Positions 5,081 to 15,099 of a stretch of DNA of 64,000 nucleotides are shown one piece after another. The translations under genes and the position numbers were made by a program. Numbering within the stretch: the first letter of the stretch is position 1; each line of letters opens with the position of its first letter. The DNA is from Escherichia coli (lineage in GTDB: Bacteria; Pseudomonadota; Gammaproteobacteria; Enterobacterales; Enterobacteriaceae). The notes beneath the pieces were generated by a model, which was not told where the DNA came from, did no database searches, and saw nothing but the letters and a program-made list of their open reading frames with translations. Location of the stretch: the NCBI RefSeq assembly GCF_003991155.1, contig NZ_CP031293.1, one strand, 5' to 3'.

Positions 5081-6733
<1,653 letters not shown>

Positions 6734-6804: not shown

Positions 6805-8118
<1,314 letters not shown>

Positions 8119-8137
8119 GTCTGACTTTATCTGATTT

Positions 8138-8169
8138 AAAAATGCCAGCCTTCGGGCTGGCATTTTTTA
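8138..8169. terminator. bidirectional intrinsic terminator shared by eno (+) and the convergent TPM gene (-)
   Basis: AAAAA TGCCAGCC ttcg GGCTGGCA TTTTTT; A-run on one side and T-run on the other. Confidence 0.8.
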
Positions 8170-8177
8170 TGGTTGAG

Positions 8178-9050
8178 TTACCAGCGACCGGACGCGCCGC
8201 CACCGCCAGAAGAACCGCCCCCGCCGCTAAATCCGCCGCCACTTGAGCCGCCACCGGAACCGCTGTTGTCTGAATGATAACTTCTACCAGATGCTTTTTT
8301 CTGAAGTACACATAAACAGGTAAAGACCATAATGGTGGTGAAAGTAAAAAAGAAGAAAAATACAGCAATGGAAAAAGTTTTATCGGAGAACAGGAATAAA
8401 TCTAAAAGATAGATTGCTGAAATACAGACACTGCTTTTACATGCGCGACAAAAATTACTGCCTTGATGAAAAAACCAGAAAGGGAAGAACATCACTGCAA
8501 ATACCCAAAAAATAGCAAAGTAATAATGATCACTGGAAGACGCTGATTCAATTTCTGAAGGATTAGCCGGATATTGGTGTTGTGAAGTGAGTTGGTTATT
8601 CAAAGCGTTTATAGCTAGCTCTAATCCCTGAGCTAATTTTTGTTGTTTAAATGCGGGTATCATGTTGCTACGGATGATATCTCCAGCCAGAGCATCGGTT
8701 ACCTTTTCTTCCAGCCCATAACCTACCTGGATGCGGACAGTGCGGTCCGACCAGGCAACAATGATCAGTATCCCATCATTGCGTTTGGCATCTCCTAAAC
8801 GCCAATTGTTAAAAACCCTTGTAGCATATTGTTCAATAGAATCGTCTCCGGTGGATGGCACTATTAATACAGCGACCTGTGCCCGTGTTTTTTGTGTAAT
8901 ATCCTGCAGCTGTTGTGTTAGTGATTGTTGTTCAGACGTGCTTAAGGTACCAGTAATATCGGTCACCTGTTGGCGCAGCTCCGGCACTGCAATTTGCTGG
9001 GTAAGCCCAGGAAGGCACCATAAAGTAAGTAGAAAAAAGATTAAGCGCAT
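8178..9050 (-). CDS. TPM-domain (YgcG-like) membrane protein, paralog C; ATG start at 9050 chosen over GTG at 9059
   Basis: Signal peptide, TPM/DUF477-like domain ([29 protein letters not shown]...), hydrophobic segment, C-terminal [25 protein letters not shown]. Confidence 0.8.
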
Positions 9051-9055
9051 AATGA

Positions 9056-10204
9056 TCACCAGCGTCCGGATGAACCGCCGCCTCCTGAAGAACCGCCACC
9101 ACCGCGGAAAGAATTTCTCGACGAAGAGCGAGAATGAGCATTACGATTCCCCGTTTTCCTGTTGCTTTTTTCTCCTGACCCCAGTTTAAGATTGCCAGTA
9201 AATTTGGCCACAATGATCAGCAGAACGATGCCAGCAATGGTTATTGGGCCGATAAAATGATCAATTAACCCAATAATTGTTGAGATGAATGCAATATCTT
9301 TATTACTGGCGAACACCAGGCACCATCCCACAACAATTATCAGCATCACGACAAACAATGAATTTCGTCCTGATTCAGGAAATTGCTGGGTCTTCTTTTG
9401 TTTTTTCACTTTAGTGTTTTTATTTTTGGGGGCCAGCATCATAGGAAATGCGCGGCACATATTAAAAACTACCGCGAGACGCTGCCAGCAGGTTGTTGCT
9501 AACAATAAACTAAAACAAACGATCGACACCCGCCGAATGATGACATCATCCTGAAAGAAGAAAAACCAGACCATAGGGGTAATCATCGATATCATCCATA
9601 TGCCAGGCCCAGGACGGCTGGTAAATCGCCAGAGGACAACGATGGCAACGATCATCAGCAGTGTCCAGGCAAGACATGGCAGCGAACGTTGTGGATTAGC
9701 AAACAGATGATTGGCTAAAGCATCCAAAGGGCTAAGGTTCGCTTTGATATGGGTAAACTGTGCGATGCTTTCAATTCCGCCCGTTAATCCAGCAAAGAGA
9801 TTGCTTTTTTCGAATTCTGGCTGCATATGGTAACGAACAATTTGCGCAGCTTGTTCTGGCGGCAACATCTGTTCCAGTCCATGTCCAATCTTCATTGACG
9901 CCAGCCCTTCCGGCCATACGACGAGAATTAAGATACCTTCGCCATATCGCTTCTCTCCAACGGGTTTCCAGTGATATAACCCGTATCTCTGCGAGGCTGC
10001 AAGTTTAATGTTTTTGCCCCCTGTAGTCGGCGTAACCAACACGGCCACCTGGAAGTGGTTTTGCTGCTCGAGAGTCTGTAATTGTTGATTTAAAGCAGTT
10101 TGTTCTTCTGTCGTTAATGTCCCGGTTAAGTCAGTTACTGAAGGCAATTGTTCAGCGAATACCTGAAAACCGCATAGCATCAGAAGTAAGAGAAAAATAC
10201 GCAT
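9056..10204 (-). CDS. TPM-domain membrane protein, paralog B, with extended polytopic membrane region
   Basis: 382 aa; signal peptide, TPM domain ([23 protein letters not shown]...), about 200 aa hydrophobic region, C-terminal [15 protein letters not shown]; RBS AAGGAA. Confidence 0.8.
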
Positions 10205-10218
10205 ATCAATTCCTTTTG

Positions 10219-11112
10219 TTACCAGCGTCCGGAAGCGCCACCGCCACCAGATGAACCGCCACCACCGCGGAAATTGTCATTGTCGAATGAAGAGGATGAC
10301 GATGACGAATAGTGGGAGGAAGAATTACTTCTTGTATGGCGTGATGGCTGGTTGGTATTACGCATCGAATCCCGAACCTTTTTGCCGAAGGGAGTAAAAG
10401 CGATGGCGACAGCCAGGAACGGTGTGGCGAAGCAGAGTAATGTTGCGAGCACTCCCCAGCTTCCGCTGAAACCTGCTATAGGTAAAACAAAGGCCAGTAC
10501 AATAGCTGCGAAGCAAATCAGTCCCAGCGTTTTGATATATCCTCTGGCAGAAATAAACGTCAGTATTATCGCCCAGACTAACAAAGCCCACCAACCGCTA
10601 AAGGGCAAAGGGTGATCGGTCGGTGTTATCGTTGCTGAATTATTCCCCGTCAGGCGACTTTCAATATCGTTGATCCCCTTTTGTAAACCACCAGCCAGGT
10701 CGCCTTTTTTAAATGCCGGAATAATACTGTTGCGAATAATTTTCCCGGACTGTGCATCCGTAATAATACCTTCCAGTCCGTAACCGATTTCAATACGCAC
10801 GGTATGATCCTGCCAGGCGACTAACAGTAGAACGCCATCATCGCGGTCTTTATCACCCGGTTTCCAGCTATCGAATACCCGCGTTGCGTACTGCTCGATG
10901 GTTTCATCGCCTGTTGTATCAACCACTAACACGACCAACTGTGCGTGGTTTTTTTGCGTCAGGGCTTTAATCTGGTTGGTCAGGGTGTTTACTTCGCTGT
11001 TTGTTAATGTGCCGGTTAAGTCATTCACATACTTGGGGGATTCAGGTACTGGAATTTGTGTGGCAAACACAGATGAACAGAAGAAAGCCATAAGGAAGAT
11101 AAAATTTCGCAT
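10219..11112 (-). CDS. TPM-domain membrane protein, paralog A; start at internal ATG (MRNFIFLMAFF signal peptide)
   Basis: TPM domain ([29 protein letters not shown]...), TM segments, Ser-rich linker, C-terminal [15 protein letters not shown]; 13 bp downstream of lemA stop. Confidence 0.8.
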   Translation of the reverse strand: MRNFIFLMAFFCSSVFATQIPVPESPKYVNDLTGTLTNSEVNTLTNQIKALTQKNHAQLVVLVVDTTGDETIEQYATRVFDSWKPGDKDRDDGVLLLVAWQDHTVRIEIGYGLEGIITDAQSGKIIRNSIIPAFKKGDLAGGLQKGINDIESRLTGNNSATITPTDHPLPFSGWWALLVWAIILTFISARGYIKTLGLICFAAIVLAFVLPIAGFSGSWGVLATLLCFATPFLAVAIAFTPFGKKVRDSMRNTNQPSRHTRSNSSSHYSSSSSSSFDNDNFRGGGGSSGGGGASGRW

Positions 11113-11125
11113 AGAACTTCCCCGC

Positions 11126-11728
11126 TTAATGCGCATTAGCATTCTGGCTAAAATCTATTGTTGGGGCTTTACTTACTGCGGTGACATCATCCGGCAAATA
11201 ATTTTTCTTTGGTGTGTAATCCATGACCTTTGCGGTTAATACAGCGGGGAATTTGCGGATAGTGACATTATATTGTTCAATGGCTTTAATATATCTTCCT
11301 CGCGCAACGGCAATTCTATTTTCACTTCCTTCGAGCTGTACCATTAAGTTTTGATAGAGTTCCTGAGCTTTTAACTCAGGGTAACGTTCACTAATTATCG
11401 TTAACTGACCGAGAGTGCGAGACACCTGCGCCTGGGCTTGTTGCCAGGCTTGTAATTTTTGCGCATCTCCCGGAGCTTGCTGAAGATCGCTACTGGCGCG
11501 ATTAGCCTGGCTACGTGCCAATGTTACGGCTTCCAGTACCTCTTGTTCATGGCTGGAATAACCTTTAATACTGGCGACAAGATTAGGAATAAGATCGGCG
11601 CGACGTTGATATTGATTCAATACCTCAGACCAGGAGGCGTTAACCTGCTCATCATAGGTTTGAATATCGTTATATCCACAGCCTGATAAATTGACAATAA
11701 ATATAATTACGATGAATATCCTGAGCAT
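11126..11728 (-). CDS. lemA: LemA-family lipoprotein/membrane protein
   Basis: 200 aa; N-terminal lipobox-like NLSGC; LemA-family sequence pattern; first gene of the lemA-TPM operon. Confidence 0.8.
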   Translation of the reverse strand: MLRIFIVIIFIVNLSGCGYNDIQTYDEQVNASWSEVLNQYQRRADLIPNLVASIKGYSSHEQEVLEAVTLARSQANRASSDLQQAPGDAQKLQAWQQAQAQVSRTLGQLTIISERYPELKAQELYQNLMVQLEGSENRIAVARGRYIKAIEQYNVTIRKFPAVLTAKVMDYTPKKNYLPDDVTAVSKAPTIDFSQNANAH

Positions 11729-11900
11729 GTCTATGTCCCTTTTAATTAATTCCTTAAAACATAATACGCCGCTTCATTTTATTCTTTATGATCTCATCCA
11801 CTTTTTGCCTTAAACCTGCCTGTAACAGAATGTTAATAAGACATGATTGTTGTGGCAGGATCTGCAATAATTAACAATTATCCACTTCACAGAGAATGCT

Positions 11901-12572
11901 ATGCAGTACCCGATTAACGAGATGTTCCAGACCCTGCAAGGTGAGGGTTACTTTACCGGCGTCCCCGCCATTTTTATTCGTTTACAGGGATGCCCGGTTG
12001 GCTGTGCCTGGTGCGACACCAAACACACCTGGGAAAAGCTTGAGGATCGGGAAGTTTCCCTTTTCAGCATTCTGGCGAAGACCAAAGAGAGTGATAAGTG
12101 GGGGGCTGCGAGCAGTGAAGATTTGCTGGCTGTCATTGGTCGCCAGGGATACACCGCGCGGCATGTGGTGATTACGGGTGGTGAGCCTTGCATTCATGAT
12201 TTGCTGCCACTGACTGACCTGCTCGAAAAGAACGGTTTTAGCTGCCAGATCGAAACCAGTGGTACTCATGAAGTACGCTGCACACCGAATACCTGGGTTA
12301 CCGTATCGCCAAAGCTGAATATGCGCGGCGGCTATGAAGTGTTGTCACAGGCACTGGAGCGAGCCAACGAAATCAAGCATCCAGTGGGACGCGTACGTGA
12401 TATCGAAGCACTGGATGAATTGCTTGCGACGCTGACCGATGATAAACCGCGAGTCATTGCACTTCAGCCAATTAGCCAGAAGGAAGATGCTACGCGTTTA
12501 TGTATCGATACCTGCATAGCGCGCAACTGGCGTTTGTCGATGCAGACACATAAATATTTGAATATTGCCTGA
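11901..12572 (+). CDS. queE: 7-carboxy-7-deazaguanine synthase (radical SAM)
   Basis: 223 aa; Cys motif CPVGCAWCDT; divergent from lemA operon. Confidence 0.93.
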   Translation: MQYPINEMFQTLQGEGYFTGVPAIFIRLQGCPVGCAWCDTKHTWEKLEDREVSLFSILAKTKESDKWGAASSEDLLAVIGRQGYTARHVVITGGEPCIHDLLPLTDLLEKNGFSCQIETSGTHEVRCTPNTWVTVSPKLNMRGGYEVLSQALERANEIKHPVGRVRDIEALDELLATLTDDKPRVIALQPISQKEDATRLCIDTCIARNWRLSMQTHKYLNIA

Positions 12573-12656: not shown

Positions 12657-13664
12657 TTATCGGTAGCGTTTTTGTAGACTGGCTGGAAGATAACGCTGTA
12701 ATGGGGATGGCGTTTCACCTTCAATCAGTTGCGAAATAAGCTCAAAGCAGTGAAAAGCAAGTTGGCGATTATCCTGTTGTATTGTGTCGATTCTTACCGA
12801 AAGTGAATCATACAAGTAATGATCATCAAAACTCGCCAGGTGGATTTTACTGTCGAGTAAATTATATTGGCTCATATAGCGCAGAACGCCTTCCAGTAAT
12901 CCACAAGCGGCAGTGAATAAGGCTTTAGGGGGACGTCCTAAACGAGCGCATAGCGCGGCAAACATTTCATAGCCTGAGCTCGGATGATAATTACCGTGAA
13001 TAATCCATTCAGGTTGTAGCGTTACTCCGGCTTGCTGCAAGCCTTGTGTAAATCCTTCCAGTCGATCGCGAGTCGGTGACAAACGGGGTTGTCCCCCCAG
13101 AAAATAGAATTCATCCGGGTGACTCCGTGCAATATCTGCCACCAGAGCGGTGGTGGGAGAAACAGAGTCAGTAATGACCAATGGCAATGTGCTGCCGTTC
13201 ATGTGGCGATCGAACAACACAACAGGTAATTGCTCGCTAAGTTTTTGATAGTCATTATCATGCAGCATACTGGATGCGACGATTAACCCATCAACCTGGC
13301 GGGCAATCATATTGTTCACCACCATTGTTTCCTGTGAAGGATTTTCATCAGTACAGGATATGAGGAGTTGGACGCCCGCTTCCCGACACAATGTTTCCAG
13401 TTCATGGGAAAATACTGCAAATCCGTAGTTAGTGATTTCAGGAACGACGAGACCAATGGTATGACTGCGGTTGTCCCGTAATGAGCGGGCATGAATGCTG
13501 GGCTGATAATGCTGCTGTTGGGCAATACTCAGCACACGCTCACGCGTTTCCTGCGCAACACGTAACTCTTTGCCACGACCATTGAGAACCAGACTGGCGG
13601 TTGCTTTCGACACTCCCGCCAGTTCAGCAATGTCTTTAATAGTAACGCGTTTGGTTTTTCTCAC
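12657..13664 (-). CDS. scrR: LacI-family sucrose operon repressor
   Basis: 335 aa; N-terminal HTH ([23 protein letters not shown]); position at end of scr operon. Confidence 0.88.
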
Positions 13665-13689
13665 GACGAGGATCCGTAATTCAAAACCC

Positions 13690-15099
13690 TCATTCTACCA
13701 TGCAGGCGCGTAGCGACCAGTAGCGTAACGTGACGTCAGACTCACCCTGTAATATCAGCGAAGCTGGATGATGGGGAAAATAACGATTACTCATTACACC
13801 TTCACCATTATTGATGAATATCTCTACGCTGGAACTGTCACAGAGAATCTTCAGTGACGTTACGCTTCCTCGCCAGTAACGAGTTAGTTTCTCTTGCCCT
13901 GCAAGGCTTCTCCTCTGTAGTTGAATACCATCGTCATTAAGATGCAGTGCCAGCGCATTGCCAAAATTCAGATACAGCTCACCCGACGGAATGATGTCCA
14001 TTTCCAGGCGTTCAATTTCGACATGCGGCGCATGATCTGCTTTTCCTTGCCAGAAGTGTTCAGCTTCACGCAGTTGCGCGAGTTCCCTGATTGGCATCTG
14101 AAACAATTTTCCCTTCTGGAATGAGAGTTCGCGAAAACAGGTCATTTGATGCTGCCAATGATGCTTTCTGGTTGGTTGCAACATCTCTTCGCCATCAGGA
14201 ACCCCCATCCAGCCGACCAGCAATCGTCGCCCGTCCGGGGCTTCCATCGTCTGTGGTGCATAGAATTCAAATCCCGCATCCAGCTCTGAGAAAGCGCCAT
14301 GCGTAAATTTGCCTGTCTCGTAATCAAACTGTCCATGTAGCCAGGCGCAGGGATAAGTATTCAGATAGCGCTCATGTTCGCGCACCATTCCCTGGGGGCA
14401 ACAGAGGAGAATGTATTCACCATCAAGGGCGAAAAAATCAGGACATTCCCACATGTATCCTGCGTTATCTATTTCATTCAGACCGTTACCAGCAATTTCT
14501 CCATGAAAAGACCAGGTATAGAGATCGACAGAGGAATACAGCAGCACTTTCCCCCGTTTCTCTTTATCTTGCGCGCCAAGCACCATGTACCATTGGCTGT
14601 TGTGCTTCCAGACTTTTGGATCACGAACATGTCCGGTGTAACCATCAGGTAACGGTATGACAGGGCCTAGTTTATCAAACCCGCCCTGGTTATTTTCGGT
14701 GGCCAGGCATTGCCATGCCGTTCTGCTGCCATCATCAAACTTAACATTACCGGTATAGCAAAGTGTGAGAACGCCCTGATTATTAACCGCGCTTCCTGAG
14801 TAACAACCATTACGGTCGTACTCTTTATCGGGCATTAGCGCTAATGGTTCATGCTGCCAGTGCAATAAATCCGTCGAACTCCAGTGCCCCCAACATTTGT
14901 ACTTATGATCACAAGCCAGTGGATTCCACTGATAAAACAGATGATAGCGGCCTCCAGACCAGCAAAAGCCATTTGGATCGTTCATTAGTCCAGTGACGGG
15001 AGCGAGATGCCAACAAGGATAGTGGGCATCTGCCAGTACTTTGGACTGACCTTTCATCACTGCCTGTAAAATCGCGGGCATTTGTGAAGGCATCGACAT
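13690..15099 (-). CDS. scrB: sucrose-6-phosphate hydrolase (GH32 invertase)
   Basis: 469 aa; GH32 motif MNDPNGF, WECPD; start overlaps scrA stop. Confidence 0.92.

Follow-up and report, generated by a model that had tools for sequence, protein, structure and literature searches.

Background

LemA/TPM operons are widespread in bacteria and are without an established function, and no functional data on any YgcG-type protein were found in the literature searched. The assignment of TPM domains as phosphatases is disputed, and they have been proposed to be chaperone-like assembly factors for membrane complexes rather than enzymes (PMC11237479, PMC12419801). For the TPM domain of BA41, ATPase/ADPase activity has been reported, as cited in PMC11237479 (its reference 90). 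Psb32 and TLP18.3, which are photosystem II repair/assembly factors, and chains of the mycobacterial CIII2CIV2 supercomplex are membrane-anchored accessory subunits located on the outer face of an energy-transducing membrane, and in each case the partner complexes are known. In E. coli K-12, the PF04536 protein YgcG (b2778) has a signal peptide, a periplasmic TPM domain, a hydrophobic anchor and a tail ending in GRW, and is encoded beside eno.

The window analyzed here, a 64,000 nucleotide stretch of an E. coli chromosome, carries lemA and three genes for TPM proteins, designated paralogs A, B and C, at this position. An earlier note had singled out paralog B for the length of its membrane domain, and had suggested that the three proteins are not redundant and that B may form a channel- or transporter-like unit.

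Results and discussion

Organization and distribution of the locus

The four genes form a minus strand operon between eno (6820-8118, + strand) and queE (11901-12572, + strand). The open reading frame list and the Pfam assignments gave the order of transcription as lemA, TPM paralog A, TPM paralog B and TPM paralog C. The first gene, lemA (11126..11728, - strand), matched Pfam PF04011 with 165 bits and PDB entry 2ETD with an E-value of 1e-32, and a lipobox, LSGC, could be read in the sequence at the N-terminus of its product. Paralog A (10219..11142, - strand) is an ORF of 307 aa (297 aa if the PGAP start at 11112 is used), while paralog C (8178..9059, - strand), the ortholog of K-12 ygcG, is an ORF of 293 aa, or 290 aa from the ATG at 9050. 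Both have approximately three transmembrane (TM) segments and a Gly tail. Paralog B (9056..10204, - strand) is a complete coding sequence of 382 aa plus the stop codon and is longer than both neighbors, in agreement with the earlier note. RefSeq lists it as WP_001217974.1, 'TPM domain-containing protein', an annotation taken from a genome with 100% identity across the locus.

The genes are tightly spaced. The B ORF starts with ATG preceded by a Shine-Dalgarno sequence, AAGGA, 7 nt upstream, and is separated from A by 14 nt, a spacing that, together with the Shine-Dalgarno sequence, indicates operon coupling. The stop codon of B lies 5 nt before the ATG of C or overlaps an alternative GTG start of C. 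Paralog B is associated with LemA in that lemA heads the same operon, an arrangement that was also found in Klebsiella-type loci, and the complete LemA-A-B-C order was present in another Escherichia species.

The GC content of the island is 0.45, compared with 0.50-0.52 in the flanking DNA. Of 5426 complete E. coli genomes, 1102 (approximately 20%) carried full-length B, among them O157:H7, CFT073 and APEC strains, and the number with at least 80% of the 4-kb locus was likewise 1102. Approximately 80% of E. coli genomes, K-12 among them, lack lemA, A and B. In O157:H7, paralog A has a premature stop codon, which indicates that some lineages can do without parts of the system. None of the four proteins, LemA, A, B or C, matched the anti-phage defence models of PADLOC.

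K-12 carries yqcG-ygcG instead of the full operon. The possibility that K-12 ygcG is an A/C recombinant left by the deletion of B was considered and rejected; the gene is orthologous to C and differs from it in its N-terminal allele. K-12 yqcG, annotated as a 46-aa 'cell envelope stress response protein', is homologous to the lemA 5'UTR together with the first 25 or so codons (E 9e-12, 71% over 124 nt), and it appears from this alignment to be a retained relic of lemA. The upstream region of K-12 queE binds phosphorylated PhoP (PMC4974570); it corresponds to the queE-lemA intergenic region of the window. A single, imperfect PhoP-box-like sequence, TGTTAC-N5-GGTTTA, is located here at 11811-11827.

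Paralog B is a genuine and constrained gene

The B reading frame was uninterrupted (382-384 aa) in four E. coli alleles that share 93.5-100% DNA identity and are up to 6.5% divergent, and was likewise intact in E. albertii and another Escherichia species, where the genes stand in the same LemA-A-B-C order and B has 378-382 aa. When B was compared with its counterpart in the other Escherichia species by the Nei-Gojobori method, omega was 0.29 overall, the TPM part (0.32) being slightly higher than the membrane part (0.26). The values for LemA, A and queE in the same species pair were 0.056, 0.16 and 0.02, respectively. With a dS of 0.4-0.5 across species, omega is clearly less than 1 in both domains of B. 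Paralog B is a genuine gene that is selectively maintained and under purifying selection. It is also the fastest evolving of LemA, A and B, with the highest omega, and its membrane module evolves faster than LemA and A; within E. coli, the omega of the membrane part was 0.3-0.65. An omega above those of LemA and A would also fit a gene of marginal usefulness.

These data bear on the trivial explanation that the extra length of B is an artefact, whether of a frameshift, of a fusion or of a wrongly called ORF. No support for such an origin was found. The overlapping ORFs on the same strand (e.g. 8932-9213) lie in other frames and are short. A single reading frame holds both the TPM domain and the family-typical C-terminal tail, the length is kept at 378-384 aa across alleles and species, omega is less than 1, and the whole B module aligns end to end with a Klebsiella-type homolog. 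The frameshift that the earlier note had named as a possible source of the extra length is excluded by the in-frame tail, the conserved length and the low omega, and an artefact of any of the three kinds is scarcely credible.

Architecture and topology of paralog B

The protein is predicted to begin with a Sec signal peptide (residues 1-17; 10154..10204, - strand), a 17-residue hydrophobic N-terminus followed by EQ. Residues 1-20 are hydrophobic and the sequence suggests that cleavage would occur at VFA/EQ. Residues 23-149 (9758..10138, - strand) constitute a divergent TPM domain, Pfam PF04536, which is predicted to be periplasmic. All of the extra length of B lies beyond this domain, where there are 230 residues compared to 142 and 135 in A and C.

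The region closest to the TPM domain, residues 159-255 (9440..9730, - strand), consists of a juxtamembrane helix, ALANHL, a strong segment, TM1 (174-192), a marginal hairpin (199-216 and 221-241) disposed around a conserved DDVII motif, and a helical extension. It is the stretch that is best conserved between the Escherichia and the Klebsiella-type homologs. The loop that follows (242-278) has 9 Lys+Arg and only 1 Asp+Glu and includes a Lys-rich stretch of 12 residues (260-271; 9392..9427, - strand), read from the sequence and predicted to be cytoplasmic. The basic character of the loop is kept in E. albertii and in the Klebsiella-type homologs, although its sequence is not. Residues 278-335 (9200..9373, - strand) form two strong TM segments, 282-300 and 317-335, connected by a short amphipathic joint (301-316); the Hessa sums for this region were -2.44 and +1.2, and the pLDDT was less than 50. 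The protein ends with a basic, Ser-rich linker and a 17-residue Gly-rich family tail (residues 336-382 plus stop; 9056..9199, - strand) that are predicted to be cytoplasmic, with 9 Lys+Arg and 1 Asp+Glu in the segment 338-382. The tail, ending in GRW, is invariant and in the same register in A, B and C and is kept in Pseudomonas and Burkholderia members. The arrangement of B is that of the YgcG family, an anchor and then a Gly tail ending in G(R/S)W, with an anchor that is atypically long.

The topology was assigned from hydropathy, a position-independent Hessa sum and a positive-inside tally. Kyte-Doolittle peak picking located five hydrophobic segments after the TPM domain, and DSSP applied to both AlphaFold models gave helices at 171-194, 199-216, 221-255, 278-302 and 304-335. 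The strict, position-independent Hessa-scale sum passed only 174-192, 282-300 and 317-335. The protein has, consequently, either five TM helices or three TM helices and an interfacial or cytoplasmic helical hairpin, with three strong and two marginal segments. The count is odd in both cases, so the overall orientation is the same. The Lys+Arg tally was 1, 9 and 9 on the proposed cytoplasmic segments, compared with 0 and 1 on the periplasmic loops, which points to an N-out/C-in orientation. The TPM domain would face the periplasm, and the Lys-rich loop and the tail would face the cytoplasm. Asp, Glu, Lys, Arg, His, Asn and Gln are restricted to the ends of the five segments and the helix cores are devoid of charged and strongly polar residues.

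An AlphaFold2 model of the B monomer obtained with 13 B-family sequences was unusable (mean pLDDT 40). The addition of 33 TPM fragments repaired the TPM domain (pLDDT 80-96), while the membrane part stayed at 35-77. In view of these values, no claims are made about the tertiary packing of the membrane part, and Foldseek matches outside of the TPM domain were disregarded.

The anchors of the neighboring proteins were examined in the same way. Kyte-Doolittle analysis gave approximately three TM-like segments over 75 or so residues in both A and C. The Hessa sum showed strong segments at 181-199, 205-223 and 231-249 in A, and two strong segments and one marginal segment in C. The excess of B over its neighbors amounts to one extra helical hairpin and a basic loop of approximately 37 residues. 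Long anchors are not unique to B. The median post-TPM length among the 111 complete family members retrieved was approximately 130 residues, and six Burkholderia TPM proteins had five segments over 216-233 post-TPM residues.

The description of B in the earlier note, roughly 200 mostly hydrophobic residues with a Lys-rich loop after the TPM domain, was borne out in part. The sequence strings that it quoted are present, the Lys-rich loop is found at 260-271, and by either count, five helices or three by the strict Hessa sum, B has more than one or two TM segments. The hydrophobic span, on the other hand, is approximately 165 residues (172-337) and includes the polar, basic loop of some 37 residues. 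The further statement that the other two paralogs have only a short hydrophobic region was incorrect, given the three or so segments in each.

No internal duplication was found in the anchor of B (TM1-3 versus TM4-5), and no similarity among the A, B and C anchors beyond composition, the Smith-Waterman scores against shuffled sequences giving a z of approximately 1 or less in both cases. Two schemes, that B is a duplicated three-TM unit and that B is an A/C anchor with an insertion, were rejected as demonstrable claims on the basis of the same z values.

The TPM domain of paralog B is degenerate

The fold of the domain is that of a TPM domain. Foldseek matched the model of B to 5ANP (E 2.5e-8), 7TBR, 2KW7, 3PVH and 8C7I, and phmmer matched its sequence to PDB entry 7TBR with an E-value of 2e-12. 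The Pfam PF04536 score was 76.6 bits (cutoff 22.1), compared with 134.9 and 141.3 bits for the neighbors. Conservation was assessed over the 43 columns that are at least 80% conserved among 31 other TPM domains of the family. The conserved residue was kept at 38 of the 43 positions in A and 36 in C; 14 were lost in B, leaving 29. The replacements in B include E67K, D88G, R103S, E105K, Y108H, G112Q and D116P, and four of the residues replaced, R103, E105, G112 and D116, are 97-100% conserved in the family. With only 29 of the 43 conserved residues, the domain of B is not a canonical, possibly metal- or nucleotide-binding, TPM domain. The residue counts indicate that it is degenerate, in agreement with its lower Pfam score.

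The loss of these 14 positions raises the possibility that B is a decaying duplicate that has lost its TPM function, is held by weak constraint (e.g. translational coupling to C) and has acquired its long anchor by neutral drift. This explanation would also account for an omega that is the highest among LemA, A and B and reaches 0.3-0.65 in the membrane part within E. coli, and for the absence of lemA, A and B from approximately 80% of E. coli genomes and the truncation of A in O157:H7. It is difficult to reconcile, however, with an ORF that was intact in every allele examined and across species at a dS of 0.4-0.5, with omega clearly below 1 in both domains. The homologs of the membrane module provide evidence on both sides of this question.

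Relatives of the membrane module

A profile of B residues 156-342 was used in a HMMER search of 1.84 billion representative proteins. There were 10 matches, all of which were B-type proteins from Escherichia, members of the Klebsiella-type group, or frameshifted fragments of these, and no relatives of the module were detected among the 1.84e9 representatives outside Escherichia and one Klebsiella-type lineage. Comparison of the module with 69 ordinary YgcG anchors by hhalign showed no relationship (probability approximately 1% or less). Pfam, NCBIfam and PADLOC gave no family match in B beyond the TPM domain, the PDB sequence search matched only residues 17-149, and the Foldseek matches beyond the TPM domain, which fell on low-confidence parts of the model, had E-values of 0.45 or worse.

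In two Klebsiella-type lineages (L002, from a source named Klebsiella spallanzanii, and L009), the gene order is queE / LemA-TPM-X-..., with X, a protein of 265-285 aa and no Pfam domain, encoded at the position of B. The alignment of X follows the signal peptide and the first TPM residues of B, skips the TPM core of approximately 110 residues, and resumes at the ALA(N/D)HL helix. Over the whole membrane module the two proteins are approximately 30% identical and have several motifs in common (LPC, RF, I..IS..T...W, (D/E)DVII and W.R). X also carries the signal peptide, the basic loop and the Gly tail, while TM4 and TM5 of B are poorly conserved between the genera. Between these two lineages, omega was 0.36 for X, while LemA (0.09) and the A-like gene (0.18) gave lower values, which reproduces the pattern seen in Escherichia. 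Since X has an omega of 0.36, the membrane module and the tail are maintained without any TPM domain.

The outright deletion of the TPM domain in the Klebsiella-type lineage could be taken as a further stage in the decay of a duplicate. The TPM-less version, however, has an omega of 0.36 and an intact signal peptide and tail, and specific motifs are conserved across the genera at only 30% or so identity. The decay of a duplicate under weak constraint is, on balance, an unlikely explanation of B, albeit the least unlikely of the alternatives considered.

The proposal of the earlier note that the three paralogs are not redundant is well supported. The TPM domain of B keeps 29 of 43 conserved positions as opposed to 38 and 36, the sequence of its module shows no relation to the anchors of A and C, the LemA-A-B-C order is kept in another Escherichia species, and a middle gene without a TPM domain is kept in the Klebsiella-type lineage.

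The suggestion that B resembles a channel or a transporter fared less well. According to this proposal, the polytopic domain, alone or as an oligomer, would form a solute pathway gated or modulated by the periplasmic TPM domain and LemA. Five hydrophobic helices exceed what a simple anchor would need, and the conservation of DDVII(R/H)(R/Q), LPC, RF and W..R between the Escherichia and Klebsiella-type proteins implies a constraint beyond plain hydrophobicity. There is a precedent in MOLO-1, a eukaryotic TPM protein that modulates an ion channel. Several observations are contrary to the proposal, 1) no similarity to transporter or channel families was found in Pfam, NCBIfam, the PDB or the profile search of 1.84e9 proteins, 2) the TM cores contain no Asp, Glu, Lys, Arg, His, Asn or Gln, 3) the hydrophobicity of two of the five helices is marginal, 4) TM4 and TM5 are poorly conserved between genera and 5) B is very narrowly distributed and has a fairly high omega, the module evolving faster than LemA and A. 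On this sequence evidence a channel or transporter, an oligomeric pore included, is very improbable.

Proposed role of paralog B

The interpretation that we favor, with slightly better than even confidence, assigns B to a LemA/TPM envelope complex as a diverged scaffold subunit in the inner membrane, a function inferred from the decay of its TPM domain together with the conservation of the gene. The selected part of B would be the membrane module and the cytoplasmic tail, because purifying selection still acts on the module in the Klebsiella-type ortholog, which lacks the TPM core. B may be a structural or adaptor subunit that tethers or organizes LemA and the two canonical TPM proteins (A and C) at the inner membrane, and it may add a basic cytoplasmic surface able to bind anionic lipid or a partner. 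It would not itself be a solute pathway. A scaffold would fit the published chaperone-like proposal for TPM domains (PMC11237479, PMC12419801), and it would also fit the superposition of the B TPM model on Psb32, TLP18.3 and the chains of the mycobacterial CIII2CIV2 supercomplex.

Alternatively, B might be a transmembrane signaling adaptor whose periplasmic TPM or juxtamembrane part senses the state of the envelope, possibly via LemA, and whose basic loop and Gly tail pass it on to a partner in the cytoplasm in a PhoPQ or envelope-stress response. An N-out/C-in protein with conserved elements on both faces of the membrane would be suited to such a function. The operon is divergent from queE, whose K-12 upstream region is the one bound by phosphorylated PhoP (PMC4974570), the intergenic DNA has the PhoP-box-like sequence at 11811-11827, and yqcG, the K-12 relic of the lemA 5' end, was named as an envelope-stress response protein; we infer that the lemA operon may be under envelope-stress or PhoPQ control. 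B has no recognizable signaling domain, however, the PhoP-box match is one imperfect box, and no partner is encoded nearby. A role as signaling adaptor appears doubtful. A more speculative variant, which we regard as slightly more doubtful still, is that the module is an autonomous, TPM-independent unit that oligomerizes as an inner-membrane hub or pore, coupling LemA and the TPM proteins to the cytoplasm under PhoPQ or envelope-stress control.

The TPM-less ortholog of B is the most interesting part of the finding, as it suggests that the functional core lies in the membrane module and the tail. The decay of the TPM domain in B and its loss in a sister genus direct attention to the membrane and tail part, rather than to the supposed phosphatase domain. 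As an accessory locus beside the PhoP-regulated queE, the operon may also bear on envelope-stress biology in pathogenic lineages.

Comparison with known systems

K-12 YgcG and the PF04536 proteins like it resemble B in all of the features listed at the outset, from the signal peptide to the GRW tail and the position of the locus beside eno. YgcG, the ortholog of C, differs in having approximately three TM segments and a canonical TPM domain, and its identity to B, some 30%, is confined to that domain. The anchor of B is approximately 90 residues longer and has no detectable sequence relation to that of YgcG, and B has lost acidic as well as basic residues that are conserved in the TPM domain.

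The five Klebsiella-type homologs share with B the queE-lemA-TPM-X-(TPM)-eno position, the signal peptide, the module, the basic loop and the Gly tail. They differ from B in the deletion of the TPM core of approximately 110 residues, in a longer loop, and in the segment between the last two helices. The six long-anchor TPM proteins of Burkholderia are similar in outline, with a TPM domain, approximately five segments and a Gly tail. Their anchors, however, were not retrieved by the B module profile and gave an hhalign probability of less than 1%, so that, judged by sequence, the long anchor of the Burkholderia proteins is probably an independent expansion.

The solved TPM structures closest to B are those of BA41 and BA42 of Bizionia argentinensis (PDB 5ANP, 2LT2 and 4OA3), of which BA41 is membrane-linked. 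Several of the conserved charged residues are missing in B, and no polytopic module has been described for BA41. Psb32, TLP18.3 and the mycobacterial CIII2CIV2 chains have the same TPM fold as B. The target-normalized Foldseek TM-score was approximately 0.6-0.73 for the single-domain targets (TLP18.3 and the supercomplex chains), and 0.29 for Psb32 (8C7I), an entry of 404 residues, with an rmsd of 2.2 over 133 columns; the NCBIfam Psb32 model did not match B. Unlike B, these proteins are held in the membrane by single-helix anchors. Set beside these systems, paralog B is a modest architectural variant of a family member that is already annotated in RefSeq.

The TPM domain paralogs

The third position of the operon, occupied by paralog C, the ortholog of K-12 ygcG (window 8178-9059, minus strand), was hypervariable. 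Paralog C was 81% identical to K-12 YgcG, the N-terminal ~75 residues of the two proteins being different, and only 50% identical (dS about 1.5) to its counterpart in another Escherichia species, the eno protein of which was 100% identical. The divergence of C, set against the invariant eno protein, suggests from sequence comparison that paralog C has undergone allelic replacement by recombination.

The three paralogs end alike: A, B and C share a nearly identical 17-residue terminal tail, which begins with F(R/S), ends with (A/S)SGRW and is encoded by the 3' ends of the genes (10219-10269, 9059-9109 and 8178-8228, respectively). The same tail was retained in Pseudomonas and Burkholderia members of the family and in the Klebsiella-type proteins that are encoded by a syntenic B-like gene but have no TPM core, and is a family-wide C-terminal motif. 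Within the operon, the tail codons could possibly also serve as a substrate for gene conversion.

Paralog A (10219-11142, minus strand) is an intact open reading frame in the window, as it is in EcPF40 and CFT073. Despite the intact reading frame, PGAP, the RefSeq annotation pipeline, labeled the gene as a pseudogene of 672 nt with a 'missing C-terminus'. In O157:H7, paralog A is truly interrupted by an early stop codon (LAT*LCF), which leaves a product of 224 aa. Since this truncated O157:H7 protein may be the evidence model on which PGAP relied, the pseudogene flag on the intact copies looks like an annotation artifact.

LemA and its probable K-12 remnant

The N-terminal residues of LemA, read from the sequence (11669-11728, minus strand), were MLRIFIVIIFIVNLSGCGYN, which contain the lipobox LSGC, so that the protein is predicted to be a lipoprotein lacking a TM-helix anchor. 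The residue at position +2 is a glycine, which points to outer-membrane sorting. LemA matched the NCBIfam MamQ model weakly, scoring 91 bits where the cutoff is 250.

When the region was aligned with positions 1-200 of the K-12 locus (L006), the lemA 5'UTR and signal-peptide codons (window ~11650-11830, minus strand) were found to align in frame with K-12 yqcG (71% over 124 nt, E 9e-12), a small protein gene of 46 aa named 'cell envelope stress response protein'. By this alignment, K-12 yqcG looks like a relic of lemA that remained once lemA, A and B were lost.

Genomic context and comparison with other loci

The GC content of the lemA-TPM island (8001-12000) was 0.45 vs 0.50-0.52 in the flanking pyrG-eno region, as would fit an accessory stretch of DNA exchanged horizontally. 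After queE, the window carries csc-like sucrose genes that encode a LacI-family regulator and a sucrose-6-phosphate hydrolase (12657-15099, minus strand), while in O157:H7 and CFT073 ygcE directly follows queE; the sucrose genes are therefore a second accessory insertion adjoining the operon.

In the Klebsiella spallanzanii locus (L002), the stretch that separates eno from the B-like gene without a TPM domain (6860-8460), which corresponds to the position of Escherichia paralog C, has a recurring GLSPLARGT...RFIPAGAGNT in the translated reading frames and looks like a CRISPR-type repeat array. In the second Klebsiella-type locus (L009), the third TPM gene is followed in the operon by a gene for a hydrophobic protein of 129 aa (5738-6127), in which no Pfam domain was found.

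The queE-lemA intergenic region contains a PhoP-box-like element, TGTTAC-AGGCA-GGTTTA (window 11811-11827), the GGTTTA half of which is kept in K-12. The 300 bp upstream of K-12 queE are reported to be bound by phosphorylated PhoP (PMC4974570), and together with the PhoP-box-like element this binding raises the possibility that PhoPQ controls the divergent lemA operon.
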